A program made the translations under genes and the position numbers. The notes below the pieces were generated by a model. It was not told the DNA's origin. It ran no database searches and saw nothing but the letters and a program-made list of their open reading frames with translations. From Acidobacteriota bacterium (GTDB lineage Bacteria; Acidobacteriota; CAIWXX01), in the NCBI GenBank assembly GCA_040755995.1, contig JBFMAF010000052.1, positions 51,202-115,201 of the forward strand: 64,000 bases of DNA. The letters run 5' to 3'. Shown one piece after another: positions 7,230 to 25,485 of the stretch. The number at the start of each line of letters is the position of its first letter. Within the stretch, counting starts at the first letter, position 1.

Positions 7230-8798
7230 CTAGTTGGACATGGAGCGGTGTCCTCGCACGAAATCCCGCAGACACGAGAAGGTCGACGGGGCCGGGCGAT
7301 CGGCTGCCGAGGGCGCTCGGTGGCGAAGCATCTGCTCCAGTTGTCCATCGGCCGCCGCGTCCTCTCCCGCGCTGGGAGCGGCGGCGAGGAGACCACCGCA
7401 CCAGGACGTCTGGGGCGCAGACAGGTTGGAAATGACGAACTTGCCCGGAGTCGCGGCGGCGGTGCCCTTGCCGATGACAAAGGTGGCGGTCTTCTCGTAG
7501 AGCGCGAACGCCTGTTGGAGCGGCTTGTACTTGTTTGGCTTCACCTTTGGGCAGGTGGCGCCGCTCGGATTGGTCGTCATCGAACACAATTCCCGGCTGG
7601 TGTAGTCGTTGTATGAACGCCCGATGAGCGCGAATCCGCCCGCGGCAAGCTCGCTGATTCCGAGGAAGTGATTGTAGTAGTGGCCGCCCAGGACATACGT
7701 GCGATTAACTTTGGCGGCACCCGTGGAAGTCATCTTGGCGAACCACGCCAGCCTGCTTCCCGACTCCGGATAGACGACTCCGGCGAACATGCATCCGCCG
7801 TCTTTGGCGAGAGAGGCGTCCCGCAGCTCGAGATCGTCGTCGTAGCTCTTCGGCGCGAACTTCCTGGCCCATTGTACCTTCCCCGTTGCATCCAGCTTCG
7901 CGGCCCATGGGACTTCATCCACCCAATCACAACCCACCAGCATGTAGCCGCCATCGCTGGTGGGGATGATCCGCCAGGCCTCGATCAGGAACTTGCCAAA
8001 CGGCGCTTCCGCGCGCCCGTAGTCACCTGCGTCATAGATCTTCTGCCAGAGGATATCGCCTGCGGCATTCATCTTCAGGATCAGAATACCCACGTCCGTC
8101 GTGGTCCACGTGCCTCCGAAGTAATACCAACCGACGCTGATATAGCCCCCGTCCGCTGTCTGCCGCACGTCGGTCATGTCGAGATACTTGTACGGGTCGG
8201 ACGTTTTCACGGCAATGGCTTTCTGGAAAAGGACGGCGCCGGCAGCGTCGAGCCTCACAATCCATCCCTTGCTCTCGTCGTTGTACCAGTCGGTCGACTT
8301 GTTCAGGTGCTCTATCTCGCCACAGGCGATGTAACCACCGGCGGCAAGCTCGTCGACATGATTGAAGGTGTATTCATAGTTCCACTTGCCGACCCCGTAG
8401 GTCTTCTGCAAGGCGATCGCCCCGGCGGGTGACAGTTCCAGGAGCACGGCATCGGTACTGTTCGCGTGGCTGTTGTCGAACTTCGGCGTTCGACTTCCCC
8501 ATAGCAGGAAGTTACCCGACTTCAACTGCCGGCACCCATTGGCACTTGAAGAGAGCGGTTCGTCATACCCTTTGGCCCATTGCACCGAGCCGGTGGAGCT
8601 GGCCTTCAGGGCACAGATCTGGAGACCGCCGGCGCTTTTCCCGACGGACGTCGCAATGATCAGGGACCCGTCCGAGTTCACGCTGATCCTGGTGGGCTCC
8701 TCGGTCTGTATGTCGTACGTCTGCACCCATTGTTGCGCATGGGCGGGAATAAGGATGAACAAGGGGAGAATCAGCCAAAGGACACATCGCGTCTTCAT
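7230..8798 (-). CDS. Secreted beta-propeller-like repeat protein
   Basis: Signal peptide (PAHA/QQW); repeated T.DGGY...G and LK.DA.G.V.W.K units; GGAGG RBS. Confidence 0.8.
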   Translation of the reverse strand: MKTRCVLWLILPLFILIPAHAQQWVQTYDIQTEEPTRISVNSDGSLIIATSVGKSAGGLQICALKASSTGSVQWAKGYDEPLSSSANGCRQLKSGNFLLWGSRTPKFDNSHANSTDAVLLELSPAGAIALQKTYGVGKWNYEYTFNHVDELAAGGYIACGEIEHLNKSTDWYNDESKGWIVRLDAAGAVLFQKAIAVKTSDPYKYLDMTDVRQTADGGYISVGWYYFGGTWTTTDVGILILKMNAAGDILWQKIYDAGDYGRAEAPFGKFLIEAWRIIPTSDGGYMLVGCDWVDEVPWAAKLDATGKVQWARKFAPKSYDDDLELRDASLAKDGGCMFAGVVYPESGSRLAWFAKMTSTGAAKVNRTYVLGGHYYNHFLGISELAAGGFALIGRSYNDYTSRELCSMTTNPSGATCPKVKPNKYKPLQQAFALYEKTATFVIGKGTAAATPGKFVISNLSAPQTSWCGGLLAAAPSAGEDAAADGQLEQMLRHRAPSAADRPAPSTFSCLRDFVRGHRSMSN

Positions 8799-10009: not shown

Positions 10010-10177
10010 CCGCGACGCGCGTGTGGCCCACCTTCTTGAAGGCTCCACCGCGTCTGCCCCGGCCGGTTCCGGCGGGCCCGGCCATCGTTTCGAAGCCGAT
10101 TTCTGATACGATGAACCATGCGAATGGGCTTCTCGAGCGCCAGACACCGGTTTTGTTTCGATGAGGAGGGCACGACA

Positions 10178-11182
10178 ATGATCAACAGAGTTCTCGTGGC
10201 ATTTGTTCTGCTTGGCTTGCTCGTCCCGGGGTCGTACGCCGCCGACCTGGCGGGCTCGCGCGACCACCCGTTGCTCAAGCGATTCGGCGGGTCCGAGATC
10301 GTCGCCTACGATCAGAAGCGGTTCGACGTATACGAATTGCAGACCTCGACCTTCAAGAGCTACAGCCTCTCGACCAATACTCGCGAGTTCGCCAGCCCGC
10401 CGCTGAAGCTCGAAGGAACGGTCACGCGCATCTGGTACGAGGCGGCCGGCGACGCCAGCGCGGTTGAGGTGATACGTAACTATCAGAACGAAATGAAATC
10501 CGCTGGATTTGAAGTCCTCTACGATTCCAGCGCCGACCGGTCAGCGACGCGCTGGGTCAACTTCCTCGCGCCATTCTCGCAAACGAAGATCAACAGCAGC
10601 CGCGGGTACTACATCTTCTACGCAGCTGACAAGGATGGAATCCGCACTCTCAGTGCCGTGTTGAAGCGGGCCGAAGGAGATGTGTACGTCTACCTCACGG
10701 CCGTGGACTGGGCCAAGGATGACGCCGTGTACAAGGCGAAGCGCGGGGCCTACGTGGCCGTTGACATCATCGAGGTCAAGCCCATGGTGCAGAACATGAT
10801 ACTGGTCAGCGCCGACGGAATGTCGAGCGCGATCAAGGGCAGCGGCCGCGTCGCGCTGTACGGAATCCTCTTCGACTTCAACCGGGCCGAGATCAAGCCA
10901 GAATCCAAACCGACCCTGGAGCAGATCGCGAAATTGATGCAGCAGGATGCCAAGTTGAAATTGTGGGTGGTCGGTCACACTGACAACGTCGGCGATTTGA
11001 GCTCGAACATGGATCTCTCGCGGCGCCGCGCCGAGGCGGTGGTGGCCGCTTTGACCCGCGACTACGGCGTGGCAGCATCCCGCCTGAGCGCGCAGGGGGT
11101 GGCTTTTCTGGCTCCGGTGGCGGTAAACACCACCGACGAGGGCCGGGCGAAGAATCGGCGCGTCGAGCTCGTGCCCTGGTGA
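10178..11182 (+). CDS. OmpA-family protein with an N-terminal DUF4892-like domain
   Basis: Signal peptide; GSRDHPLLKRF; ILFDFNRAEI, VVGHTD, LSRRRAEAV, GRAKNRRVEL. Confidence 0.9.
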   Translation: MINRVLVAFVLLGLLVPGSYAADLAGSRDHPLLKRFGGSEIVAYDQKRFDVYELQTSTFKSYSLSTNTREFASPPLKLEGTVTRIWYEAAGDASAVEVIRNYQNEMKSAGFEVLYDSSADRSATRWVNFLAPFSQTKINSSRGYYIFYAADKDGIRTLSAVLKRAEGDVYVYLTAVDWAKDDAVYKAKRGAYVAVDIIEVKPMVQNMILVSADGMSSAIKGSGRVALYGILFDFNRAEIKPESKPTLEQIAKLMQQDAKLKLWVVGHTDNVGDLSSNMDLSRRRAEAVVAALTRDYGVAASRLSAQGVAFLAPVAVNTTDEGRAKNRRVELVPW

Positions 11183-11378: not shown

Positions 11379-11407
11379 TGAAGGAACCGCTTTACGGTTG
11401 TGTCTAA
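11379..11407 (+). promoter_or_regulatory. Possible ECF autoregulatory promoter
   Basis: TGAAGG(AACC)...GTCTAA directly before the sigma start; spacing is ambiguous. Confidence 0.3.
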
Positions 11408-11973
11408 TGGTGCGTGAACAGGACGATGCCGCTGTGGTACAAGGATGCCTCTCGGGTGACCGATCGTGCCAGGAGAAGCTGGTGCGGGAGAATCTCGTGA
11501 CGGTTATGAGCGTTGCCCTTGGATTCACTCGCGACCGGACCTCGGCCGAGGACCTGGCTCAGGAGGTCTTCGCGAGGGTTTTTGGGAATCTGAAGGGATT
11601 CCGCGGCGGATCATCGCTGCGGACGTGGATCTATTCGATCGCCGTTACCCAGGGGCTAAACGCCGTGCGCAAGCGCAGGCCGGATACCCTGAAGATCGAT
11701 GAGGCCCGAGCCGTGCAAGGGGCGGAGACATCGCCTGAGCAGCGAGCACTCCAGGCAGAGCTCCATGCCGCCGTTCATCAGGCCGTCGAGAGTCTGCCCG
11801 AGAACCTGAGATCGGTGGTGGTGCTGTGTTCATTCGAGAACCGCCCAGCCGAGGAGGTGGCAGGGCTGCTGTCGATTCCGCCTGGAACGGTCTTTTCGAG
11901 GATGAGCAAGGCGAAGGAGATCCTGCGCCGGAAGCTGGCGCGATTCATGGAGCCGCAGGGAGCCGGGCGATGA
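11407..11973 (+). CDS. ECF sigma-70 factor
   Basis: AEDLAQEVF, FRGGSSLRTWIYSIA, LPENLR...EVAGLLSIPPGTVFSR (regions 2 and 4). Confidence 0.93.
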   Translation: MVREQDDAAVVQGCLSGDRSCQEKLVRENLVTVMSVALGFTRDRTSAEDLAQEVFARVFGNLKGFRGGSSLRTWIYSIAVTQGLNAVRKRRPDTLKIDEARAVQGAETSPEQRALQAELHAAVHQAVESLPENLRSVVVLCSFENRPAEEVAGLLSIPPGTVFSRMSKAKEILRRKLARFMEPQGAGR

Positions 11974-13418
11974 CAAAGTGTGATTCGGAGCTATTATCGA
12001 GCCTGGCCGGCCGGCTTGCGCCTGCCGACGGGGGCGATGCCAGGGCGCTTTCCGAGCGAGCCAAGGCCGATCCAGGCGCGTTCGGTTATCTGCCCGGGGC
12101 CGAACGCGTGTTCCTTGCGGAGCACGTCGGCGGTTGCGAGAGATGCCGCGGGCTCCTGGATGAGCAGCTCTCGGTCGGAGTCCTTCTGCGGAAGGCCTCC
12201 TTTCACCTGCCGGCTGATGTTGATGAAAAGGCTCTGCGGATGCTGGAGGAACGTATCGTGCAGCGGGAGGCGGAGCGATTCGCCGGGGCTGCGCGGGTCT
12301 CCCGGCCGCGGATTATTGAGATTCTCGACTTGGCAAAGGAGTTCATCATGTCGATCGATCCAACCAAGGGATTGAAGTACAAGTACGGCCTCGGCGGTAT
12401 TGCCATTGGAGCTGTCTTGGCATTCGTCGTGTACTTCGCTGCTCTTTATCCGTGGCCGGGCATGCAGGAGGCCGCCGGGACGATGGGGGGTGTTGAAAAA
12501 GCCGACCGGTATCGGTCTGAGCAGATGTCGGAGAGCACCATCGGGACCGAGGTTCCCACCAGCGCGGAGTACAGGGAGCAGATGCAGAAGATCCTGCAAC
12601 GGATCGATACTGCCAAACTCATGAAGGCGGCTGCGGTCGACCAGGTCGTGCAGGCCGTCAACGCTACAGGCTTCTTCAGGGGTCCCATGCAGAGCCTGAT
12701 ACAGAACGCGGTCGCCGATGCCTGCCAGTCGACAGGAATCGTGGTCTGCAACAACGCGGCTCTCATGCAGGGGATTGAGCAGTCCGCGCTGGCCGGGATT
12801 CAGAACGCAGTCGGCTACCAGGTGCAGGCTGCCATGCAGAATGCGTTCCTGATGTCCTGCCAGACCGCCTTGGAGAACGTCCTGAAGTCGAATGTGGCGA
12901 TGCAGGGGGCCATCTCCGACCCGAAGGCCCAGGCGTTCTTTGCTCAGTCGCTCGAGTCGGGGTTTGTGGGAGTGCTGGCGCAGCCAGCGGTGCAGAAACT
13001 GCTCATGGATCAGGCCGCGGGCGTGGTGGGCGCTACCTTCAATGACCAGGCCCTCATGACGGGAATGAGCACGCAGGTGGAAAACGCGTGCGGGTTGTTC
13101 ATGCAGCAGAACAAGGACGGGTTGGGCGTGGGTGCCACGGCCCTTTCCCCACAGCTGCAAGCCGCCGTCGCGCAAAACGTCCAGAGTGCCGTGGGGGCCG
13201 TTTGGCAGACCGGGGCCGTGGGTGCCGTCGGCGCCGTGGGCGCGGTGGGCGCCGTGGGCTCCTCGCAGGCCAGCGCTCTGGCCAACATGCAGGGCTTCCT
13301 CATGAGCAACGTGGCCGGCGCGGTCGGGGCAAGCCAGGCCTATGGGGCCATGGCGAACAGCCTCTTGGCCAGCTCTAACTCCTTCCTGCAGAGCTCGGGC
13401 ATCGTCGTCCCGCGATAG
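11970..13418 (+). CDS. Zinc-binding anti-sigma domain fused to a membrane-anchored Q/A/G-rich GAV-repeat protein; internal start at 12348
   Basis: ATGA overlap with sigma; HVGGCERC (HxxxCxxC); one TM helix; (GAV)5; internal AAGGAG-ATG. Confidence 0.8.
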   Translation: MTKCDSELLSSLAGRLAPADGGDARALSERAKADPGAFGYLPGAERVFLAEHVGGCERCRGLLDEQLSVGVLLRKASFHLPADVDEKALRMLEERIVQREAERFAGAARVSRPRIIEILDLAKEFIMSIDPTKGLKYKYGLGGIAIGAVLAFVVYFAALYPWPGMQEAAGTMGGVEKADRYRSEQMSESTIGTEVPTSAEYREQMQKILQRIDTAKLMKAAAVDQVVQAVNATGFFRGPMQSLIQNAVADACQSTGIVVCNNAALMQGIEQSALAGIQNAVGYQVQAAMQNAFLMSCQTALENVLKSNVAMQGAISDPKAQAFFAQSLESGFVGVLAQPAVQKLLMDQAAGVVGATFNDQALMTGMSTQVENACGLFMQQNKDGLGVGATALSPQLQAAVAQNVQSAVGAVWQTGAVGAVGAVGAVGAVGSSQASALANMQGFLMSNVAGAVGASQAYGAMANSLLASSNSFLQSSGIVVPR

Positions 13419-13449
13419 GGGCACGAGGGCGGAGGCAGGTGGCGTGGGC

Positions 13450-13611
13450 ATGACAGAGGGCGCTGTGAGTGCTCAGATGTACCAGCTCAACGCGAAGATC
13501 GATCTCGCGTTGGCCCCTGGGAGCTGGGGTCGGCTGGCTATGGAAGCCCCATTTCCCCTTGTCCCGGCCGCGGATTTGGTGAGAGTCTTCATTGAACAAA
13601 GGAGTTCATAA
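13450..13611 (+). CDS. Possible 53-aa linker ORF or remnant
   Basis: ATG 13450; its TAA overlaps the next ATG (TAATG); the last ~50 bp resemble 12300-12347. Confidence 0.25.
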   Translation: MTEGAVSAQMYQLNAKIDLALAPGSWGRLAMEAPFPLVPAADLVRVFIEQRSS

Positions 13612-14708
13612 TGTCGTTAGATCCAACCAGAGGGATTAAACTCAAGTACATGATCGGCGGTTTTGCCATCGGAGCCGTCGTGGCATTCGCCGTGTACTAT
13701 GCCGCTCTCTATCCCTGGCCGAGAGCCCAGGAGGCCGCCGGGACAATGGGGGGCGTTCAAAAAGCCGACCGGTACCGATCCGAGCAGATGTCCGAGAGCA
13801 CCATCGCGACCGAGGTTCCCACCAGTGCGCAGTACAGGGAACAGATGCAGAGGATCCTGCAACGGATCGATACTGCGAAACTCATGAAGGCGGCTGCGGT
13901 TGACCAGTCCGTGCAGGCCATCAACGCTTCGGGATTCTTGAACACTCCGGGCATGCAGAGCATGATACAGAACGCGGTCGCCGCGTCGTGCCAGGCGTCC
14001 GGAGTGGTGATCTGCAACAATCCGGGCTTCATCAGTGGGATGGAGCAATCCGTGCAGGCCGGGATACAGAACGCAGTCGGCTATCAGGTGCAGGCCGCGT
14101 TGCAGAATGCATTCCTGATGACGTGCCAGTCGACCCTGGACAACGTTCTGAAGTCGAACGTGGCCATGCAGGGAGCTATCTCCGATCCGAAAGCGCAGGC
14201 TTTCTTCGCTCAGTCCCTGGAATCGGGGCTGGTCGGGGTGCTGGGGCAAGCTGCGATGCAGAAATTGCTCATGGAACAGGCTGTCGGCGTCGTGGGCGCC
14301 ACCTTCAATGACAAGGCCCTCATGACGGGAATGGGCCAGCAGGTGGCGAACGCGTGCGGTGTCTTCATGCAGCAGAATAAGGACGGGTTGGGGGTGGGTG
14401 CCGCGGCACTTTCCCCGCAGCTACAGGCCGCCGTCGCACAAAATGTCCAGAGCGCCGTCGGAGTAGTGTGGCGGGGCGGAGCCGTGGGTGCCGCCGGCGC
14501 GGTGGGCGCCGTAGGGGCCGTGGGTGCAACGGGAGCCGTGGGCGCCCTTGGCGATGTGCAGGCCACCGCTCTGGCCAATATGCAGGGCATCCTCATGAGC
14601 AATGCGGTCGGAGCTCTCGCGGGAAGCCAGGCCTATGGCGCCATGGCCAACGGCGTTCTGGCCAGTGCGAACTCCTTTCTCCAGAGCTCGGGCATCGTCA
14701 TCCGATAG
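13611..14708 (+). CDS. Paralog of the GAV-repeat membrane protein without the anti-sigma domain
   Basis: AAGGAG RBS; colinear with 12348-13418 (YPWP, AAGTMGGV.KADRYRSEQMSE, four Cys, longer GAV run). Confidence 0.88.
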   Translation: MSLDPTRGIKLKYMIGGFAIGAVVAFAVYYAALYPWPRAQEAAGTMGGVQKADRYRSEQMSESTIATEVPTSAQYREQMQRILQRIDTAKLMKAAAVDQSVQAINASGFLNTPGMQSMIQNAVAASCQASGVVICNNPGFISGMEQSVQAGIQNAVGYQVQAALQNAFLMTCQSTLDNVLKSNVAMQGAISDPKAQAFFAQSLESGLVGVLGQAAMQKLLMEQAVGVVGATFNDKALMTGMGQQVANACGVFMQQNKDGLGVGAAALSPQLQAAVAQNVQSAVGVVWRGGAVGAAGAVGAVGAVGATGAVGALGDVQATALANMQGILMSNAVGALAGSQAYGAMANGVLASANSFLQSSGIVIR

Positions 14709-14841
14709 TGGCAGCATGAGGGGTGAGGCAGGCGGCGGAGGGTTGGCGGGACGGCCGGTCGGGTCAGGGATCCGGCGATTGCGACCCCGGAGTAGCCGGT
14801 TCCGATGGGGCTCGGCCCGAGGCGGCGACATCCCGCCGGCG

Positions 14842-17769
14842 ATGGGCGCGCCGGCTCTGCTCCTTGCGGGACTCCTCCTGCTTCCCGCTGCACCGCTATC
14901 AGCCCAGTTCAACAGCATCGAAACGAAGAACCAGCAGCTGATCACGTACGGACCGATGCTCTCGTACCTGGCTCCGCATCTCGCTCGCTGTTTCGAGAAC
15001 TCGCTCCGGACGCACGAGGCCATATGGGACTACGTCCCCACCGAGAAGACGCAGATGATCTTTCACGATCTGGCCGACTCGTGCAACGCTGCCGCCACGT
15101 CGGTTCCTCACAACATGCTGGTCGTCAACGCGGCTCCGTTCAGCTACGTCTACGAGACGTTGCCGGGAAACGAACGGCTGAACTGCCTCATGAATCATGA
15201 GCTCACGCACGTCCTGACCATCGACAAGGCGTCGGCCACGGACCGCTTTTTTCGAAACGTGTTCTTCGGCAAGGTGTCACCGGTGCCGGAAGCGCCCCTG
15301 TCGATCCTGTACGGCGGACTGACGAGTCCGCGTCTCTATTCGCCGCGCTGGTTCATGGAAGGGATCGCTGTGTTCATGGAGACCTGGATGGCGGGCGGGA
15401 TCGGCCGCGCGCTGGGAGCCTATGACGAAATGGCCTTCCGGACCCTGGTCCATGACGACGCCGAGATGTTCGATCGCGTCGGCCTCGAGTCTTACGCGGT
15501 AAAGATGGATTTCCAGGTCGGTGCCATGTCGTATCTTTACGGCACGCGCTTCTTCAACTACCTTGCCCTGCAGTATGGTCCCGAAAGCCTGATCCGCTGG
15601 GTCTCGCGGACCGATGACAGCAAGAGCTACTTCTCGTCGCAGTTCCAGCAGATCTTCGGCAAGCCGCTCGACCAGGCCTGGAACGAGTGGCGCGCGTTCG
15701 AGCGTGAGTTCCAGCAGAAGAATCTGCAGTCGCTGCGCGCCTACCCGACGACCCAGTCCCGCGAGATAACGAGCGAGGCCGTCGGGTCGTTGTCGCGGCC
15801 CTACTATGACCCGTCCAGAGGGAAACTTTACATGGCGGTTGCTTACCCCGGACAGGTGGCACACGTCGCCTCGGTCGACGTTGCCACCGGCGCCGTTGAG
15901 CGCCTGTGCGACGTGAAGGGACCTGCCAATTATTTCGTGAGCTCAGTGGCATATGACCCGTCGACTGGGACTCTCTTCTACACAACCGACAACAAGGACT
16001 GGCGCGATATCCGGGCCGTGGATGTCCGCACCGGCCGCTCGCGTCAGGTCATGAAGGATGCCCGCATCGGCGACATCGCGTTCAATGGCGCGGATCGGTC
16101 GCTGTGGGGTGTCCAGCGCGCCAACGGCATTTCGTCGCTTGCGCGAATCCCCGAACCCTACACGAACTGGGTCGCAATCTTCACGTGGCCCTACGGCAAG
16201 GACATCTACGATCTGGACATCTCTCCGGACGGCAAGAGAATCTCGGCCGCACTGACCGAGCCGACCGGACGGCAAAGCCTCATCCTGATGGACGTGGACA
16301 AGTTGCTGAAAGGAGAGCAAAGTTACGAGACGCTGTACGATTTCGAGTACAGCTCGCCGGAGAATTTTGTCTTCACGCCGGACGGCAAGTACCTCGTGGG
16401 GACCTCGTTCTACAGCGGAGTATCCAATGTCTACAGGTACGATCTGGAGCTTCGCGACATACAGATCATGAGCAACTGCGAGACCGGATTCTTCCGCCCG
16501 ATGCCATACAACGATCGCGAGATTCTCGTCTACGAATACACGGCCCGAGGCTTCGTGCCCGCCGTCATTCCGTTCCAACCGGTCGCCAACGTAAATGCCA
16601 TACGGTTTCTCGGGCAGGAGGTCGTCGAGAAGCACCCGATTGTCAAGAGCTGGAAGGCCGGCTCCCCGGCCTCGATCGATCTTGACACGCCGGACGTCCG
16701 GCGGGGCCGCTACCACGACCTCACGTCCATGCGCTTGACATCCATCTACCCGGTCGTCGAAGGATACAAAGACTTCCCTGTATACGGGTTGAAGGCGTCC
16801 CTGAGCAGTCCGTTCAGCACGGTGGATTTCACCGCCGGATACTCACCTAACACGAACCTTCCCGGGGCCGAACGGACCCATCTCAAACTCTCCATCCGCC
16901 GGACGTTCTGGAAGCTATCGGGAACATACAACACGTCGGATTTCTACGATCTTTTCGGCCCGACCAAGGCCAGCCGCAAGGGGTATTCGTATTCGCTTGA
17001 ACACTTCCGAACTCTTGTATTCGACGAACCGAACCGCTACGTGGACTACAGCATCCGGGCCGCGGCCTACGGCGACATGGATAGGCTTCCAGACTACCAA
17101 AACATCTCGACTGACATCCGCCAGATGTTCACGCTGCGAGGCAAGTTCAACTATCAATACTTGACGAAGTCGCAGGGCGCCATCGATGACGAAAAAGGCC
17201 ACCAATGGCAGATCATCGCCGACGCTTCATACGTCAAGCCGAAGGTCTACCCGCGGGTTTATGCTAATCTCGACTACGGATTTCCATTGCGCCTGCACCG
17301 GTCGTCGGTGTGGCTGCGGAGCTCCGCCGGCGTCGCGGCCGGCAACCGCGAGTCCCCATTCGCGAACTTCTACTTCGGCGGGTTCGGCAACAACTGGGTC
17401 GACCATCTCACAGAAACGCGCTATCGCGAATCATACTCGTTCCCGGGGGTGGACCTGAACGAAATCGGCGGCACGAACTACGGCAAGCTGCTTGTGGAGT
17501 GGAATGTCCCGCCGGTGATCTTCCACCGCCTGGGGTGGCCGTCGTGCTACCTCAACTACATCCGTCCGGCGGTATTCGGGACGGTGCTGGGCACGAATCT
17601 CGATGACTCCGCGGTTCGCCGGACTCTGTTCGACGCCGGAGTACAGCTGGACTTCCGGTTCATCGTGCTCTCACGCTTGAACATGACGCTCTCCGTCGGC
17701 GCCGCCGCGGCCGTGGAGAAAGATCATGCTCCGTCCAGCGAGTTCATGGCCTCGCTGAAGATTCTCTGA
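14842..17769 (+). CDS. Large exported protein: gluzincin-like HExxH domain, TolB/WD40-like propeller and probable outer-membrane beta-barrel (start may be 14716)
   Basis: Signal PLSA/QF; LMNHELTH...PRWFMEGIAV; ISPDGK and FTPDGK propeller repeats; aromatic-rich alternating C-terminal strands. Confidence 0.8.
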   Translation: MGAPALLLAGLLLLPAAPLSAQFNSIETKNQQLITYGPMLSYLAPHLARCFENSLRTHEAIWDYVPTEKTQMIFHDLADSCNAAATSVPHNMLVVNAAPFSYVYETLPGNERLNCLMNHELTHVLTIDKASATDRFFRNVFFGKVSPVPEAPLSILYGGLTSPRLYSPRWFMEGIAVFMETWMAGGIGRALGAYDEMAFRTLVHDDAEMFDRVGLESYAVKMDFQVGAMSYLYGTRFFNYLALQYGPESLIRWVSRTDDSKSYFSSQFQQIFGKPLDQAWNEWRAFEREFQQKNLQSLRAYPTTQSREITSEAVGSLSRPYYDPSRGKLYMAVAYPGQVAHVASVDVATGAVERLCDVKGPANYFVSSVAYDPSTGTLFYTTDNKDWRDIRAVDVRTGRSRQVMKDARIGDIAFNGADRSLWGVQRANGISSLARIPEPYTNWVAIFTWPYGKDIYDLDISPDGKRISAALTEPTGRQSLILMDVDKLLKGEQSYETLYDFEYSSPENFVFTPDGKYLVGTSFYSGVSNVYRYDLELRDIQIMSNCETGFFRPMPYNDREILVYEYTARGFVPAVIPFQPVANVNAIRFLGQEVVEKHPIVKSWKAGSPASIDLDTPDVRRGRYHDLTSMRLTSIYPVVEGYKDFPVYGLKASLSSPFSTVDFTAGYSPNTNLPGAERTHLKLSIRRTFWKLSGTYNTSDFYDLFGPTKASRKGYSYSLEHFRTLVFDEPNRYVDYSIRAAAYGDMDRLPDYQNISTDIRQMFTLRGKFNYQYLTKSQGAIDDEKGHQWQIIADASYVKPKVYPRVYANLDYGFPLRLHRSSVWLRSSAGVAAGNRESPFANFYFGGFGNNWVDHLTETRYRESYSFPGVDLNEIGGTNYGKLLVEWNVPPVIFHRLGWPSCYLNYIRPAVFGTVLGTNLDDSAVRRTLFDAGVQLDFRFIVLSRLNMTLSVGAAAAVEKDHAPSSEFMASLKIL

Positions 17770-17818
17770 TGGACGGTCTCGCGGCCTGTCCAGATTGTCC
17801 TCTTGCCTTCCGGCGGTG

Positions 17819-18826
17819 ATGCTCGCGCTCGAGATCGTCATCGCGCTCGCTCCGGTCTTCGTCTTTCTCGCAGCGCTCATCCTGTGCGACAGCTTCAAGC
17901 TGGCCGGGTGGCGGATGGTCTTGACGGCCATCCTGGCTGGCTTCGCCGCGGCGGCGGTGAGCTACGAAGTGACGGCATGGGTGATCGACGGACACATCGT
18001 CAAGACCGCCCATCACACAAGGTTCAGCGCCCCCGTAGTCGAAGAGCTGCTCAAGGCGCTGTTTCTCCTCTATCTCATCCGAGCGAGCCGGATCGGGTTT
18101 CTTGTCGACTCCGCCATCTACGGTTTCGCGATCGGCGCCGGATTCGCATCCGTCGAAAATCTCTATTACCTGTACGCAGTCGAGCGCGGCAGCCTGGTGA
18201 TCTGGGTGATAAGAGGATTCGGGACGGCCATCATGCACGGGGGAACTACGGCGATTTTCGGCATCCTCTCGAAGGGACTGGTGGATCGGCACGATTCACA
18301 CAAGCTGGTTCTGTTCGTACCGGGTCTCCTCGTCGCTGCGGGCATCCACTCTGTATACAATCATTTCATACTGCCTCCGGCTCTCGGGACCGTCGTGCTC
18401 GTGATCACCCTGCCGCTGCTGCTGGTGTTCATCTTCGAGCGGAGCGAAGCGGCGCTCAGGAGCTGGCTGGAGCTCGACCTGGATGCCGACATGGCCATTC
18501 TCGACTATATCCGCAGCGGGCGTGTGCTCCAGAGCCGCATGGGCCGCTACCTCCGGTCGCTCAAGGGGCGTTTCCCGGGGGAGGTGCTGGCCGACATGCT
18601 TTGCTACGTTCGGCTGCACGTGGAGCTGGCCATCAGAGCGAAGGGGATCCTCATGATGCGCGAGGCCGGCTTCAAGCCAGACTTGGCGTCCGACATCCTG
18701 GAAAAATTCGAGGAGCTGGCGTACCTTGCCAGGACGATCGGCAAGACCGGCAGGCTCGCCGTCTCACCGCTCCTGCGCACCCGCAGCCGCGATCTCTGGC
18801 AGCTCAAGATGCTCCTCGACCTCTGA
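17819..18826 (+). CDS. prsW: PrsW-family glutamic intramembrane protease with C-terminal extension
   Basis: APVVEELLK, GFASVENLYY, IMHG and IHSVYN motifs; multiple TM helices. Confidence 0.88.
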   Translation: MLALEIVIALAPVFVFLAALILCDSFKLAGWRMVLTAILAGFAAAAVSYEVTAWVIDGHIVKTAHHTRFSAPVVEELLKALFLLYLIRASRIGFLVDSAIYGFAIGAGFASVENLYYLYAVERGSLVIWVIRGFGTAIMHGGTTAIFGILSKGLVDRHDSHKLVLFVPGLLVAAGIHSVYNHFILPPALGTVVLVITLPLLLVFIFERSEAALRSWLELDLDADMAILDYIRSGRVLQSRMGRYLRSLKGRFPGEVLADMLCYVRLHVELAIRAKGILMMREAGFKPDLASDILEKFEELAYLARTIGKTGRLAVSPLLRTRSRDLWQLKMLLDL

Positions 18827-18841
18827 TTCCTTGCCTCGATC

Positions 18842-20656
18842 ATGCTAGTGAGTCCACTGAGCAGCGACACGGACGACGAACGGCTATCCCTGATCTGGCC
18901 GGCGTTGATCGCGGCTCTGGCGCTGGGAATGAGGCTGGCATACCTCGCGGAGATCCGCACTCTGCCGCTTGTCGAGAACCTGCTGGGCGACAGCCGGACG
19001 TACCTCGCGTGGGCTCACGAAATCACCTGCGGGCAGGGAGGCGGAATCGCCCCGTTCTATCAGGCTCCGGGCTACCCATACTTCCTCGCGATTCTCCAGG
19101 GAGTCTTCGGCGGCGGTGCCGCGACGATTCGCGTCATCCAGTGCGTATTGGGATCGATGTCGTGCGTGCTGACAGTCGTCGCGGGCCGGTATTTCTTCTC
19201 GGCGCGAGCCGGAATCATTGCCGGCGCTCTGCTCGCCGTCTACCCTCCTGCTTGGTTCTACGATGGTCTCGTGCAGAAGGCATCGCTCAGCCATTTCCTC
19301 CTGAGCAGCGTCCTCGCCCTGCTGGCCTGGGATGCCGGCCGGCCTCGGAGCTGGAAGCCGCTCATCGCCGGATTCCTGATCGGGATCGAGTGTCTCGTCG
19401 TGGAGCTCACGATGGCGCTCGTGCCCGTCGTGTTTCTGTGGATCTGGTTGCGCCGGAGCGCCGAAGACGCGGTTTCCGCTGGCGGGAGACTTCGCCGAAG
19501 AGCTATCAGGATTGGCGGACTCCTCGCCGGCATCCTGCTGGCAGTTGGACCGGTCGCCATCAGGAATCTCGTCGTGACGGGGTTGGCAAGTCCGACGACG
19601 TACAACTTCGGAGTCACCTTCTACATCGGGAACAATCCGCTTGCGGATGGGACTTCAATACCGCTGGTTCCGGGTCGCGAGCTGGTTGATTCCGAGCGAA
19701 ACGACGCGCAACGCCTCGCGGAGGCTGCGTCCGGACGCGAGCTCTCGCCGCTCGATATCTCGGCCTACTGGTTCGGTCGATCTCTGGAGTTCATTCGGGC
19801 TCACCCGCTGCGCTGGTCCAAGCTGCTGGGTTACAAGTTGCTGCTTGTCTGCAACGCCTACGAGATCCCAGATGTGGATGGGATGGCTGTGTGCGCGAGG
19901 TGGTCGCGGCTGTTCAGATATGGACATCCAGTGTACCACTTCGGCGTGCTCCTGCCGCTCGCCGCAATCGGCGCCGTACTGACCTGGCCTCAGCGGCGCA
20001 GGTTCTGGATTCTTTACGGGTACCTGCTTGAGATGGCCGCGGCGATCGTGCTCTTCTACGTGCTCGGCCGCTATAGATACACGCTGGTGCCCGCGCTAGT
20101 GTTACTCGCAGGGGCTGGAGCCTCCCGGCTGTCCGAGGGTCGCGATCTGGTGGAGGCCGTGGGGTGGAAGCGATTTCTCGCAGCAGCAGCCGCGACCATC
20201 ATCCTGGCGGCCGTTGTCAACGTGCCTCCCTCGCTTGCGACGTCCTGTGATGCCGTCGCGCTCGGGAACCTGGGCGTTGCGTACCTTGGCCAAGGCGATC
20301 TCGCATCAGCTGCGCGGGTCACACATGAGGCCGTAGAAGGGGCGCCCGAGTGCGCATCCCTGCACTACAATCTCGGCACGATCTACTCATGGCAGCGGCG
20401 TTACGCGGAAGCGGCTCAGCAGTACCGGCTGACAATCGCCCTCCAGCCGGATTTCCCAGGAGTCCAGTACCGACTGGCTTTCGCCCTGGAGAAAGAAGGC
20501 CGGCCTCAGGAGGCTCAGGTGCATTACTGGAGAGCGCTCGAACGGGATCCGCGAGACATCTTTGCGCGAGACGCCCTGGAACGCCTCGGTTCAGAACTCG
20601 CCGGTGTAGGGGGGAGCGATTCGAGAGGAGGCCGGATTGGAGCGACCTCGCCATAA
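18842..20656 (+). CDS. ArnT/PMT-like (GT-C) membrane glycosyltransferase with C-terminal TPRs
   Basis: GDSRTY, FYQAPGYPYFLA, RYRYTLVP; many TM helices; TPR units LHYNLG...ALQPD. Confidence 0.85.
   Translation: MLVSPLSSDTDDERLSLIWPALIAALALGMRLAYLAEIRTLPLVENLLGDSRTYLAWAHEITCGQGGGIAPFYQAPGYPYFLAILQGVFGGGAATIRVIQCVLGSMSCVLTVVAGRYFFSARAGIIAGALLAVYPPAWFYDGLVQKASLSHFLLSSVLALLAWDAGRPRSWKPLIAGFLIGIECLVVELTMALVPVVFLWIWLRRSAEDAVSAGGRLRRRAIRIGGLLAGILLAVGPVAIRNLVVTGLASPTTYNFGVTFYIGNNPLADGTSIPLVPGRELVDSERNDAQRLAEAASGRELSPLDISAYWFGRSLEFIRAHPLRWSKLLGYKLLLVCNAYEIPDVDGMAVCARWSRLFRYGHPVYHFGVLLPLAAIGAVLTWPQRRRFWILYGYLLEMAAAIVLFYVLGRYRYTLVPALVLLAGAGASRLSEGRDLVEAVGWKRFLAAAAATIILAAVVNVPPSLATSCDAVALGNLGVAYLGQGDLASAARVTHEAVEGAPECASLHYNLGTIYSWQRRYAEAAQQYRLTIALQPDFPGVQYRLAFALEKEGRPQEAQVHYWRALERDPRDIFARDALERLGSELAGVGGSDSRGGRIGATSP
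20056..20160 (+). repeat. 105 bp direct repeat, copy 1 (inside the GT-C gene); copy 2 at 57706-57810
   Basis: Hand alignment gives 12 mismatches in 105 bp. Confidence 0.9.
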
Positions 20657-20984: not shown

Positions 20985-22466
20985 TCAAGGACTGCTTGAC
21001 AGCAGCTTCAGGCTGATGGTCTTCGTGCTGGCGGTGATGTTGTTTTCGAGAATGGGGTCGTCATTCTTGTTGTCAGGGTCGATGACTGCGATGAGATGAT
21101 AGACCCCGGGCTGGACGGTCGAGGGTACGGGGATGCTCGCGATCAGCTTGCCCTTCTTGTTCGCGGATATTGGCTCGATCGCCACGGCACCCAGTGTCAG
21201 ATCACTGACTGAGAAGGTCGTGTCCTTGGAGAGATAGAACATGACATCGGTCGGCTCCGTACTGTCATCGCCGTCGTTCAGAACATGGACCGTTGCCCGG
21301 ATGGTACCACCGGGGACGGCCTGAATCGTGCCGACGTTCAGGGCAACTGCCCGCAGGTCGTTTATCTCCTTGAACTTCGCGCCCATGATCATGTTCAGGA
21401 GCTTCCCTGATTCTTCAAGAGTGACTTCGTATCCGCTCAGTGTATCGGGTACAACGACGTGAACAAGATCAAGGTCCGGGATGACCAGAATGGCGTGTCC
21501 CCTGTACCCGGATGCCGCATAACCAGCATGGCCCCGAAGGTGTTCGAACTGAGCGAGCGGCCGGAATTTGCGCGAGAATGTCTTCCACATGTACCCGAAT
21601 CCGTACCCGGCAAGTTCTGGAACGCCCATGGAGGCGTTTGACCAGGTCTTGGTGCTCTCCTTTACCCACTTCTCTGAGACGATCTGCTCGCCGCGCCAGT
21701 TGCCCTTGTTGAGGAACAACAAGCCGAATCGAGCCCGGTCCCGTGCTGACATCCAGAACGTGTACGCTGGGTGTATGGACTTGTCGAGTTCGTATTCGTA
21801 GCTGCAGAGCTTGACATCGAAGTCCTGCATCCCGATTCGGTCGGCGATCCGTGCCTTGAACTCCTGGTAGATGTCCTTTCCTGTCTCCTGCCGGAAGATC
21901 GTGCCCAGCGCGTTGAAATCCCAGTTGTTGTAGTAGAAGAACTCGTCGGGGCCGTGAGAGCCGCGAGGGGGCCGGAGCGCTTCCATCTCGGGCGTTTCGG
22001 CGGCAGCTTCGTGGTAGACCCCCGACCGGGACTTGATCAAGTGAACGACCTTGGCCTGTTTCTCGGCCTCCGTCAGAGACGGCGGTATGTCATCGATCCC
22101 CAGTTCCTCGATCGTCTTGTCCATATCGATACTCCCCTCATCCACATGAATGCCGATGAGGGCGCTGAGGAAGCTCTTGCGAACCGAGTGACAGTAGTAG
22201 TTGCGTTTGCTCTTCCCCCACTCGAGCAGCAGCCTCCCCTTGTAGATGGTCACCGATGACGCATAGGCCGGCTGAAGCTGATCGAAGTATGCCTTCGCTT
22301 CGGCGATCTCTCCCGAATCGAACCCCGCCTCCTCGGGGCTGCCAAACCGGGGCCATCCTGCCTTGCCTCTGGCGGCGGAGGTCTCATCGGCCCAGATAGC
22401 GCACTGGCATGAGACAGCCAGGACGATGACAGGGATCGGTATTCCGTGAACAGGAGAATTCCTCAT
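20985..22466 (-). CDS. Secreted serine hydrolase (class C beta-lactamase family) with C-terminal CARDB/Ig-like domain
   Basis: SVRK (SxxK), FYYNNWDFNALG (YxN), MSARDRARFG; C-terminal V.N.G...FYLS.D...PG.Y.L.AVIDPDN. Confidence 0.88.
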   Translation of the reverse strand: MRNSPVHGIPIPVIVLAVSCQCAIWADETSAARGKAGWPRFGSPEEAGFDSGEIAEAKAYFDQLQPAYASSVTIYKGRLLLEWGKSKRNYYCHSVRKSFLSALIGIHVDEGSIDMDKTIEELGIDDIPPSLTEAEKQAKVVHLIKSRSGVYHEAAAETPEMEALRPPRGSHGPDEFFYYNNWDFNALGTIFRQETGKDIYQEFKARIADRIGMQDFDVKLCSYEYELDKSIHPAYTFWMSARDRARFGLLFLNKGNWRGEQIVSEKWVKESTKTWSNASMGVPELAGYGFGYMWKTFSRKFRPLAQFEHLRGHAGYAASGYRGHAILVIPDLDLVHVVVPDTLSGYEVTLEESGKLLNMIMGAKFKEINDLRAVALNVGTIQAVPGGTIRATVHVLNDGDDSTEPTDVMFYLSKDTTFSVSDLTLGAVAIEPISANKKGKLIASIPVPSTVQPGVYHLIAVIDPDNKNDDPILENNITASTKTISLKLLSSSP

Positions 22467-22785: not shown

Positions 22786-25470
22786 TCACTCATGCCTCAG
22801 CGCATCGACCGGGTTGGCCCGGGCCGCCTTGATCGAATGGAGTCCCACGCTCCCTACGGCCAGGATCGCGCCGGCCAGGCCGGCCGCGACAAACACCCAG
22901 AGCTGGGGCGAGATCCGGTACGGGAACTCCTCGAGCCACGCGCTCACGTAGATGTGAGCCACCGGCCACGCCAGGAAATTGGCGATGGCGATCAACACGA
23001 GATACTCTCCCGTCAGAAGCCAGGTGATCCGGAGCGCTGTGGCCCCCAGCGCCCTTCGCACGCCAATCTCCCTGGTCCGTTGCTGCATGGTGAAGCTGGC
23101 CAGCCCGAAGAGGCCAAGACACGCCATGAGGACAGCCAGGATTCCTAGCGAGGAGAGGCCCCTTGCCGTGTCGCGCTCCGTGCGGTACATCCGCTGGAAG
23201 TCCTCGTTGACGAAGTGGTAGCTGTACGCCTCATCGGGGAAGCTCTTGCGGAAGGCCTTCTGGATGAACGCGACTGTCGATGGGATCTGCTCGGGCGAGA
23301 TCTTGATGGAGATGTTACTCCCGGTCGTATTTTCGGGGAGCAGGAACATCACCAGGGGTGTGATGGCGAAGTGGAGGGATCGAAGGTGGAAGTCTTTGAC
23401 AACACCAACCACCCGGATTTCGCGGTTGCTTTCCGACCGGTAGTCCCCTCCATAGTACAGCCTCTTGCCTATGGGCTCGTCCCAGCCCATTGCCTTGGCG
23501 GCCGTCTCGTTGACAATCGCGGCCGACACCGCTTCGGCACGAGATACCTCTTGGAAGCCCCGACCTCTGACCAGCTTCATCTGGTAGGTCGACATGAAGT
23601 CCTCGTCGACGTAGTTGTTGTTGATTGAAATCTCGGTGCCGGGCGCCGCCCCTTCCCAGCTCGTGCCGGTCCAGTTGATCGAATCGTAGGGGAGGTAGTC
23701 GGAGCTGCACACGTTGAGGATATGAGGGTTCTTCATGAGCTCCGCACGGAAGACCTCAGTCTGTACCGCATTGATTTGGTTCAACGGAATGGTGATGACT
23801 TGGTCGCTGCGAAACCCCAAGTCCTTCGAGGTGAGGTAGCTGACCTGCTGTAGAACGACGACCGTGGCGATGATCATCGAGATGGAGATGAAGAACTGGA
23901 TGACGACCAGGGATTTCCGGAGGATCGGATTCCTGTAGCCGGAGGACATCGTTCCTTTGAGCACACGAATGGGGTGAAACGAAGACAGGACAAGAGCAGG
24001 ATAGAGACCCGAGAGCACGGCGACCACCATGGCCAGCAGGGCAATACCGGCGAGCCAGATCGGCTCGTCGAGGAAAGGAATGCGCAGATTCTGCCCCAGC
24101 AGAGCCGGAAATAGCGGTCGCATGACCAACATCAGGACCAGAGCCAGCCCGGAGGCGACAAACGTCGTCAGGATCGATTCGCAGAGGAACTGCGTTACCA
24201 GGGCTGTTCTCTGAGCACCCGACACCTTCCTCAGCCCGACTTCCTTGGCGCGGTGCGCCGAGCGCGCCGTAGACAGGTTGACGGAGTTGATGACGGCGAT
24301 CAGGAGCACGAACAGAGCGACGATCGAGAAGAGTCGGACTCTCTTGATGCTCCCGATCACCCCGATCTCCTCCGTCACGTCGGCGCAGAGATGAATCTGG
24401 GTCAGAGGGCGGAGGTACAGCTCGTTTCTGCTCTGTCCCCCCTGCAGTCTCTTCAGTCCCGATCTGAGCTTGGCATCCAAAGCCGAGACGGACTCTCCCG
24501 GCCTCAGGAGAATGTAGAACTGCGTGAAGTTGCTCGTCGTATCGGTGAAGACCTCTGGGCCGAAGAAGTCTTCCAGTGTGGACTCAGAGAGGATCATCTC
24601 GAAACTCAGATGAGAATCAGCGGGGACCTCTTCGAGGATCCCCGTGACCTGGACGTCCAGTGTCTGGTCCCCTTCACGGAGTTGGGGATTGGAGGCGCGC
24701 AGGACCTTCCCGAGGGGCTCGGTGTCCCCGAAGAACCGCTTCGCCAGGCCCTCTGTCAGCACAACCGAATTGGGGGCCCGTAGAGCCGTCCTCGGGTCTC
24801 CTTTCTTCAGGCGGAAGGAAAAGACGCGAAACAACCCTTCGTCTGAGATCAAGGTCCTTTCCACTTGGAGCTTGCGACCGTCAGCCGTCCTCAACAGGAA
24901 CGGGAAAACCCCGCAGAACCGCGTGACATCTTCGATCTCGGGAAAGTCGAGGATCGAGATGACCGTGGCAGGCAGACTGGCCGTCGCCTTACGGCTGTTT
25001 CCATCGTCCACTATCTGTTCGATCCTGACAATGCGATCAGACTTCTCATGAAACCGGTCGAAGCTCAGTTCCAATCTCACATAGAGCCCGATCACGAGAA
25101 ACACGGTCAGGCCCGCGGCCAGCCCGAATACGTTGATGAGAGTGTACCCCAGGTGGCGCCGCATGTTTCGCAGGCCGACCTTGGCGTAGTTCCAGCCCAG
25201 GGCGGGCACGAAGCGCGGCGGCTGCCATGGCGGCCGCCCCGAACGCCGGGTGGTGCACGCCTTGTAGAACTCCGTGCCGATGTCGGCGGTTCCGCCGAGA
25301 CGCGCGGCCACCTGGTTGAATGCCTCCTCCTCGGTCATGCCCTGTCCCACCAGCTCCTCGATGCCGTCGCGCAGGTGCCCCTCGAGCTCGGCAATGTACC
25401 CTTCCTCTATGGACTGGCTTCTGGCCAGTCCGCCCTTCCAGGCCCTGATGGCTCTCTCCAGGTCGAACAT
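22786..25470 (-). CDS. MacB/FtsX-type ABC permease (duplicated) with N-terminal permease-prefix domain
   Basis: ELEGHLRD...EEAF..A.RLG prefix; RAKEVGLRKVSGA, RTREIGVRRALGA, ANPVDALRHE. Confidence 0.92.
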   Translation of the reverse strand: MFDLERAIRAWKGGLARSQSIEEGYIAELEGHLRDGIEELVGQGMTEEEAFNQVAARLGGTADIGTEFYKACTTRRSGRPPWQPPRFVPALGWNYAKVGLRNMRRHLGYTLINVFGLAAGLTVFLVIGLYVRLELSFDRFHEKSDRIVRIEQIVDDGNSRKATASLPATVISILDFPEIEDVTRFCGVFPFLLRTADGRKLQVERTLISDEGLFRVFSFRLKKGDPRTALRAPNSVVLTEGLAKRFFGDTEPLGKVLRASNPQLREGDQTLDVQVTGILEEVPADSHLSFEMILSESTLEDFFGPEVFTDTTSNFTQFYILLRPGESVSALDAKLRSGLKRLQGGQSRNELYLRPLTQIHLCADVTEEIGVIGSIKRVRLFSIVALFVLLIAVINSVNLSTARSAHRAKEVGLRKVSGAQRTALVTQFLCESILTTFVASGLALVLMLVMRPLFPALLGQNLRIPFLDEPIWLAGIALLAMVVAVLSGLYPALVLSSFHPIRVLKGTMSSGYRNPILRKSLVVIQFFISISMIIATVVVLQQVSYLTSKDLGFRSDQVITIPLNQINAVQTEVFRAELMKNPHILNVCSSDYLPYDSINWTGTSWEGAAPGTEISINNNYVDEDFMSTYQMKLVRGRGFQEVSRAEAVSAAIVNETAAKAMGWDEPIGKRLYYGGDYRSESNREIRVVGVVKDFHLRSLHFAITPLVMFLLPENTTGSNISIKISPEQIPSTVAFIQKAFRKSFPDEAYSYHFVNEDFQRMYRTERDTARGLSSLGILAVLMACLGLFGLASFTMQQRTREIGVRRALGATALRITWLLTGEYLVLIAIANFLAWPVAHIYVSAWLEEFPYRISPQLWVFVAAGLAGAILAVGSVGLHSIKAARANPVDALRHE

Positions 25471-25485
25471 GCCCGATCGCCCCAC

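Follow-up and report, generated by a model that had tools for sequence, protein, structure and literature searches.

A predicted PrsW-based envelope module and its rewired variant with a fused anti-sigma factor in an Acidobacteriota bacterium

Regulated proteolysis of the PrsW type appears to lie at the heart of an undescribed envelope module, an independently rewired and fused variant of which is found in five genes of an Acidobacteriota bacterium. The genes lie in a 64,000-nucleotide stretch of contig JBFMAF010000052.1 (assembly GCA_040755995.1), hereafter the window, and encode a sigma factor of the extracytoplasmic function (ECF) group, a zinc-type anti-sigma factor fused to a membrane-anchored protein, a second, stand-alone copy of that membrane-anchored protein, a peptidase-propeller-barrel protein and a PrsW-family intramembrane protease. 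Comparison of gene content among related loci indicates that ECF sigma, anti-sigma, membrane-anchored protein (here termed the cargo), gluzincin-propeller-barrel protein and PrsW are one real module, distributed across many diderm phyla.

The five genes share the forward strand and are of the kinds described in the original prediction, as borne out by open reading frame (ORF) calls, Pfam and NCBIfam matches and residue positions (Table 1). Their description as closely spaced or overlapping is true of the sigma and anti-sigma genes, which do overlap, and less so of the others, with gaps of 192, 133 and 49 bp following the fusion gene, cargo copy 2 and the barrel gene, respectively. The HxxxCxxC anti-sigma factor is joined, as proposed, to a membrane-anchored low-charge domain, both the zinc ligands and the transmembrane segment (TM) being found, and the second copy of that domain is a stand-alone paralog 80% identical to the first (284/355). 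The identity of PrsW was likewise recognized correctly, since the family match is accompanied by intact catalytic motifs. Regarding the exported protein of ~975 aa, the HExxH site and the downstream glutamate stand, while the propeller and barrel assignments come from PD40 and Omp85_2 matches which, like a zf-HC2 match among the window proteins, fall under the Pfam cut-offs. The start of the barrel gene is ambiguous, as a further in-frame ATG lies at 14716. The nearest named homologs of the barrel and sigma proteins are labelled Acidobacteriota.

The evidence for a module comes from its recurrence. When genome contigs were scanned with the barrel protein, 627 of 632 candidate stretches were confirmed; the best 80, kept as loci, derive from Bacteroidota, Ignavibacteria, KSB1, Aminicenantes, Zixibacteria, Eisenbacteria, Calditrichota, Gammaproteobacteria and others. 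Of the 57 barrel loci with 2.6 kb or more of upstream DNA, 56 encode the cargo upstream; of the 70 with enough downstream DNA, 66 encode PrsW, and for all four without a local copy it is encoded elsewhere in the genome. A sigma gene is present in 43 of the 50 loci having 5 kb upstream. Moreover, in one sample of 401 same-phylum genomes the components form nested sets, 32 genomes having the cargo, 34 the barrel and 40 this PrsW; all 32 cargo genomes carry barrel and PrsW, and 32 of the 34 barrel genomes carry the cargo. One genome, G025, is counted only in the denominators of this sample and gave one weak partial match, and supports no claim. Locus L026 has barrel and PrsW, but the cargo was not found in its genome. 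The clustering of the module genes is far beyond chance, and the co-occurrence of the downstream genes elsewhere, on which the original prediction had staked itself, is thus observed. No description of this module was found in the searched open literature on PrsW with Omp85, anti-sigma factors, repeat proteins or ECF factors; among the ECF groups examined from the supplement of one survey (PMC7826278), PrsW is named for ECF30 and ECF227 only.

An RsbW-like kinase gene lies directly upstream of the canonical sigma gene in 45 of the 80 loci (e.g., L025:4695-5246), and in genomes G056 and G341 such a kinase is encoded beside PrsW with no sigma within the fetched region. The module's RsbW-like kinase was not found in the window genome (G000) with that query; generic RsbW-like kinases occur on its other contigs, and none on the window contig.

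The most distinctive trait of the window is the fusion of anti-sigma and cargo. The usual anti-sigma of the module is a separate protein of ~260 aa with an ectodomain unrelated to the cargo, and the fusions swap its TM and ectodomain for those of the cargo. In G002, a genome of the same family, the same fusion of zinc anti-sigma and cargo follows the sigma ortholog, on a contig separate from that of the barrel, PrsW and stand-alone cargo. Zinc-type fusions of similar build are also present in L041 and P0065, and the H/C/C ligands and the single TM are kept in all three relatives. More widely, fusions account for 27 of the 150 top cargo representatives and for 14 of 28 phylum loci (8 recognized by profile and 6 read by eye); among the best 80 loci they are found in seven canonical loci, in L041 and in two short-leader loci. 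They span three distinct sigma/anti-sigma types, and in a FastTree tree of the barrel the 12 fused among 50 scored rows need 8 changes, when seven rows of unknown state are left out and L001 is scored from its G002 counterpart. In addition, an internal ATG with a Shine-Dalgarno match of 5 or more is found in eight of the nine fusions checked, as compared to 50 of 1,994 (2.5%) other internal ATGs, while the ninth has GGAGG plus GTG as its internal start; the G002 fusion likewise keeps the internal site. In the window, the ~50 nt before the internal start align with the 5′ region of copy 2. Because 9/9 fusions keep this ribosome-binding site, one gene probably makes both an anti-sigma sensor and a stand-alone cargo through a dual start. 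It follows from the conservation in the family relative, the recurrence across the tree and the internal site that the fusion is no accident. Five loci with a third sigma type (L004:2057-5013, L006:4895-7861, L097, L123 and L126) encode after it a cargo with an N-terminal extension of only 20-30 residues bearing a KKYY motif; this extension may be a minimal anti-sigma in fusion with the cargo.

Cargo and anti-sigma also have a motif in common. A G-[TSA]-[ILMV] sequence lies at most 32 residues after the TM in 39 of 41 anti-sigmas, against a mean of 7.7 and a maximum of 16 in 1,000 shuffles, a test that measures conservation and not independent origin, as these sequences are related by descent. 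Its distance past the TM is mostly 11-16 residues in anti-sigmas and 9-15 in 59 of 63 cargos. In alignments made without pre-selection, 40 of the 41 anti-sigmas keep the glycine, as do 147 of the 150 cargo representatives, and this residue (G134, 97%) is the best-conserved extracytoplasmic column of the anti-sigma. A link to the protease is provided by six genomes that have PrsW but no barrel match. In three of them, which belong to one genus and are 95-98% complete, sigma, a GTIG-bearing anti-sigma and PrsW are encoded together, and no barrel or cargo came up in profile searches; among the remaining three, a contig end truncates the barrel gene of one, and in the other two PrsW adjoins an RsbW-like gene and the fetched region contains no sigma. 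As one genus keeps sigma, anti-sigma and PrsW without barrel and cargo, the partner of PrsW is the motif and that of the barrel is the cargo. The proposal of a fused copy reporting on how the cargo is processed thereby gains real support from the common motif, the recurrent fusions and the barrel-free PrsW/anti-sigma core; it has to be amended in that the fusion is probably a dual-start gene and its sigma pair is not the module's usual one.

Relatives of the cargo resemble each other only over the first ~70 residues, which comprise a basic tail, a signal anchor, a proline-rich linker, G-T-I-G and KYRxxQ...DV. An N-terminal profile of this segment retrieves 1,626 clusters at 50% identity with E<=1e-3, and 681 with E<=1e-10, from 1.84 billion representatives, and a Pfam scan of the segment in 14 relatives gave no family above cut-off. 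Past it lie tandem amphipathic repeats, with a period of 9 in 27 and of 12 in 11 of 61 ectodomains; across the family the period varies from 7 to 20 and the ectodomain length from ~130 to 760 residues. The repeats match the STI1-DP and MgtE_N profiles, a kind of match that is unreliable on repeats, which suggests that they form helical solenoids. The two window copies have no clear period and yet score above shuffles against the repeat profile of the relatives (equalled or exceeded in 0/146 and 1/153 of the shuffles listed, out of 200), and so look like degenerate members of a repeat-protein family. The "GAV domain" of the original prediction does occur in two copies, but its GAV composition is local and absent from relatives, and is not a feature of the family. 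The tract amounts to 5-7 copies of a 9-bp unit in the window; its interpretation as a core resembling those of ribosomally synthesized and post-translationally modified peptides was rejected, as it is short, differs between the copies and is absent from relatives. Word-index protein searches with copy 2 and with fusion residues 30-200 returned only the window's own protein, a sensitivity limit made evident by the profile search, and an Atlas search with copy 2 gave zero matches. The two copies agree at 84 of 126 four-fold third positions and in ~50 nt of upstream sequence, whereas the identity of either one to the G002 copies is just 32-37%, and they therefore stem from a recent duplication or conversion.

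The barrel protein probably combines a gluzincin-type peptidase, a beta-propeller and an Omp85-type barrel. The H, E and H residues of its zinc site and the downstream E are invariant in 73/73 homologs. Matches below cut-off among 48 members are to PD40 (24), Omp85_2 (20) and Peptidase_MA_2 (14), its Atlas neighbours are labelled TolB/Omp85 and fall in clusters rich in PD40, and a PDB search gave weak matches to solved propellers. In addition, 15 amphipathic strand peaks follow residue 610, in the last 365 residues. Distant homologs (21-27%) at L100-L103 (genomes G028, G026, G008 and G029) have no cargo, PrsW or sigma nearby and are a wider family used in other contexts.

PrsW proteases are characterized by the catalytic motifs EExxK, FxxxE, H and HxxxN, all of which are present in the window protein. 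Its residues E75, E76, K79, F109, E113, N114, H140, H177 and N181 are invariant in 65/65 aligned homologs, in which PrsW is a stand-alone protein. A plain hydropathy scan of the window protein gives four segments above 1.6; eight TM helices are expected for PrsW (PMC3482391). Residues ~205-335 (18430-18826) contain invariant W216, D259, E269, E299, G308, G311 and P317 with no Pfam match, and this C-terminal extension is a candidate regulatory domain. Other contigs of G000 carry three ORFs whose motifs resemble those of site-2 proteases. At L150:10002-12061 (G309), insertion sequences separate the anti-sigma gene from prsW, in a genome with two prsW copies.

The sigma factor of the window is not the one that normally accompanies the module. 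In a quick tree it groups with that of L041 (support 99) and falls outside the canonical clade of 46 rows (support 98). The canonical promoter, CAAC-N17-GTA, precedes the sigma gene in 38 of 45 and the cargo gene in 34 of 58 canonical loci, against shuffle maxima of 7-8; it is absent before the barrel genes, where no promoter motif is enriched, and in the six canonical fusions scored no such site lies ahead of the cargo half. G000 has no canonical CCAACTTT-N13-TGTA site above 17 bits. Instead, TGAAG-N17/18-GTCTMA is found before three genes, those of the sigma in the window, the sigma in L041 and the stand-alone cargo in G002, which defined the pattern, and the G002 sigma, read after the pattern was set, has a site with one change. 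The window site is the sole strict one in the 7.7-Mb genome (reversed control, 0). A looser pattern occurs at chance level there (23 vs 23), and no site precedes copy 2, barrel or prsW. These trees and sites point to a lineage in which the usual sigma, anti-sigma and promoter were replaced by a zinc anti-sigma/ECF pair with its own promoter, an arrangement that is new here. The window sigma does not reach the NCBIfam SigW equivalog cut-offs (NF007223, 89.9 vs 209 bits; TIGR02948, 80.2 vs 243.1), and among the matches listed in a metagenome scan with it, 80 other ECF loci had no cargo, barrel, PrsW or promoter. GTG 11410 may be a leaderless sigma start. At several canonical loci, L018, L039 and L054 among them, an ATG lies ~7 nt past the -10 GTA, a spacing that suggests leaderless sigma transcripts.

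A working model can be proposed on these grounds. The sigma factor would transcribe the operon from the promoter motif ahead of its own gene, and the cargo would be made as a type II inner-membrane protein, with copy 2 and the fusion's internal start as its two sources. PrsW would then cut at or beside the G-T motif, 10-15 residues outside the membrane, freeing the ectodomain with its conserved N-terminal tag. The peptidase-propeller-barrel protein, whose partnership with the cargo is indicated by their co-loss, would take the tagged cargo, trim it and deliver it, as a fibre of helical repeats, to the outer membrane or across it. The longer of the two products of the fusion gene would be an anti-sigma with the same site, so that the same cut would start its destruction, presumably ended by a site-2 protease, and free the sigma. 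Cargo and sensor would thus compete for one protease, and transcription would be coupled to the capacity for processing or to a signal by which the site is opened. That PrsW releases the cargo at the motif, that the barrel protein matures and exports it and that the fused copy is cut alike to free the sigma is the reading we favour, at slightly better than an even chance. The broader proposal falls somewhat short of even and is made tentatively: it would be a new diderm secretion system, with PrsW as the leader peptidase dedicated to a surface fibre of hypervariable helical repeats, the gluzincin-propeller-Omp85 protein as translocon, the anti-sigma as a cargo molecule made from an upstream start, and the fusion as reusable wiring by which at least three unrelated ECF sigma types captured the pathway.

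Several observations weigh against these proposals. The barrel fold is read from profile matches below cut-off and from strand periodicity, no PDB match to the barrel and no solved relative was found, and the protein ends in Leu, an aromatic C-terminal residue being usual for outer-membrane barrels. The barrel-free natural experiment is a single genus and one evolutionary event; homologs are not independent, and the common motif could stem from a shared ancestral TM segment. A fourth match to the first promoter pattern, in G041, falls inside an unrelated ORF. The cargo sequence (A/V)-x-G before T also suits a signal peptidase I site. PrsW is reported to cleave RsiW at Ala168-Ser169; the two small residues speak for the model, but the cut lies 40 residues from the RsiW C-terminus, which lends no support to a juxtamembrane preference (PMC8767453).

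Among the alternatives, the one with most weight, although we hold it unlikely, is trans-envelope sensing without export. The cargo would be a periplasmic rod or decoy that meets the outer-membrane peptidase, and its clipping or degradation, or an external ligand, would expose the G-T site to PrsW, the cargo acting as feedback inhibitor or relay with no surface role. The joint loss of barrel and cargo is compatible with any partnership, the solenoid matches and a peptidase on the side expected to face the periplasm suit such a rod, and the RsbW-like kinase added at many loci is a signalling part. However, an ectodomain so variable in length and repeat period is unlike a fixed-length ruler, only the N-terminal tag of the cargo is conserved, and the cargo has its own promoter and ribosome site, as would befit an abundant product. 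The favoured model also differs from one in which PrsW does another job, such as a second cut, and the G-T motif is either a signal peptidase I site or a self-cleaving Gly-Thr; this we regard as improbable. Residues of the cargo at -3 (A/V) and -1 (G) agree with signal peptidase, but in anti-sigmas position -3 is usually L/V/M/I and position -1 hardly ever Ala. Both families conserve +1 and +2, positions to which signal peptidase I is blind, and PrsW still adjoins the anti-sigma where barrel and cargo are gone. There are precedents for both cuts, SipS/SipT and SipP being the site-1 proteases of RsiV and RsiP (PMC10202637), and FoxR cutting itself at Gly191-Thr192 by an N-O acyl shift (PMC11637429). 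A universal N-O shift is ruled out here by the Ala that stands in place of Thr in 24 of 150 representatives, 5 of 53 cargos and 4 of 41 anti-sigmas.

The fusion itself could be tolerated read-through, a lost stop having joined an anti-sigma remnant to the cargo gene so that only the short internal product matters. Small deletions easily create such joins and the cargo half keeps its own ribosome site in every fusion checked, but we give this very little credence: G002 retains the fusion at 37% cargo identity with HxxxCxxC intact, no separate module-type anti-sigma was found in G000, the zinc domain would have no membrane anchor if the cargo TM were removed, and fusions recur in many lineages.

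The module can be compared to several known systems. Like two-partner secretion and Fap or curli export, it has a dedicated barrel, here a predicted one, encoded next to a cargo that is rich in repeats and bears a conserved tag at its N-terminus, and Fap also includes a peptidase; unlike them, its cargo is membrane-anchored and apparently helical, and no TPS domain, POTRA or amyloid repeat profile was matched in Pfam scans of the module proteins. It shares with Bacillus subtilis SigW/RsiW/PrsW/RasP an ECF sigma gene overlapping that of a one-TM zinc anti-sigma, intact PrsW motifs and, putatively, an autoregulatory promoter, and its sigma has regions 2 and 4 only with the anti-sigma gene adjacent, as in the SigW/RsiW type. 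On the other hand, the window host is a diderm, PrsW lies in the operon and carries a C-terminal extension, the cargo is a second predicted PrsW substrate with the same site, the anti-sigma ectodomain is cargo, and a predicted outer-membrane peptidase-barrel is attached. Cell-surface signalling by FoxA/FoxR/FoxI and FecA/FecR/FecI brings together, as predicted for the module, an outer-membrane barrel, an anti-sigma and an ECF factor per locus, with a conserved Gly-Thr in the anti-sigma ectodomain. The module differs in its Gly-Ala variants and its dedicated PrsW and cargo gene, and neither a TonB-dependent transducer nor FecR was matched, in Pfam or NCBIfam, by the fusion protein, the barrel protein or four stand-alone anti-sigmas. 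The WD40-Omp85 subfamily (Heinz and Lithgow 2014, PMC4104836) has the architecture predicted here, a propeller N-terminal to an Omp85-like barrel with no POTRA seen; the invariant gluzincin domain distinguishes the present proteins, whose barrel match is below cut-off, and the sections consulted of that description mention no link to a peptidase, PrsW, sigma or cargo. Finally, PrsW has been proposed to release exported, variable C-terminal cargo in polymorphic toxin systems (Zhang et al. 2012, PMC3482391), where, as described there, it is fused to the toxin domain and mainly Gram-positive, whereas here its substrate would be a separate repeat protein, cut in trans. Neither a toxin domain nor an immunity gene was seen, and the cargo matched no toxin profile in Pfam. 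The module probably has a new export arm.

Table 1. Features of the module region of the window (positions counted from the first nucleotide of the window).
Feature	Position	Strand	Remarks
Putative sigma promoter TGAAG-N18-GTCTAA	11379-11407	+	-10 element overlaps ATG 11407
ECF sigma	11407-11973	+	Pfam Sigma70_r2/r4_2 and TIGR02937 above cut-off
Zinc anti-sigma/cargo copy 1 fusion	11970-13418	+	482 aa; overlaps sigma stop
Zinc anti-sigma HxxxCxxC motif (within fusion gene)	12123-12146	+	H52-x3-C56-x2-C59
Internal ribosome-binding site AAGGAG and ATG	12336-12350	+	would start cargo copy 1 alone
Cargo copy 1 TM (within fusion gene)	12390-12446	+	residues 141-159; one TM in fusion protein
G-T-M-G motif, cargo copy 1	12477	+	followed by low-charge helical A/G/V/Q ectodomain with 4 Cys
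Stand-alone cargo copy 2	13611-14708	+	signal anchor, G-T-M-G at 13740, KADRYRSEQMS motif, degenerate repeats
Gluzincin-propeller-probable Omp85-type barrel gene	14842-17769	+	975 aa, predicted exported
HExxH of barrel protein	15196-15210	+	H119-E120-x2-H123; downstream E173 at 15358
PrsW-family intramembrane protease	17819-18826	+	PF13367 E 1.7e-21; ~130-aa conserved C-terminal extension
PMT_2-type (GT-C) glycosyltransferase with TPRs	18842-20656	+	Pfam PMT_2, TPR; possible sixth gene in the host's family

The glycosyltransferase gene begins 15 bp past prsW, and an ortholog 44% identical to it lies directly upstream of the stand-alone cargo in G002; no ortholog was found in G001, a genome without the module, and a full-length match occurs in just 1 of the 80 barrel loci. 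This PMT_2/TPR protein could glycosylate the cargo and is a candidate cargo-modifying enzyme. Upstream of the sigma gene by 224 bp, a co-oriented gene (10118-11182, +) encodes a secreted OmpA-domain protein with a weak DUF4892 match and no sign of module membership. Judged by translation only, a secreted propeller-like protein (7230-8798, -), a beta-lactamase-like serine hydrolase (20985-22466, -) and an ABC permease (22786-25485, -) are unrelated neighbours.

The module is portable, as an unrelated sigma with its own promoter took over the window copy through the same kind of fusion seen elsewhere. If the proposed model is true, a large protein family that so far has no name (1,626 clusters) would gain a function, as would an Omp85-like protein with a peptidase domain that is common among poorly cultured phyla. 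The G-T motif would be the first candidate recognition motif of a PrsW protease, and the dual-start anti-sigma/cargo gene would represent an unusual control logic in which the sensor is itself the substrate.

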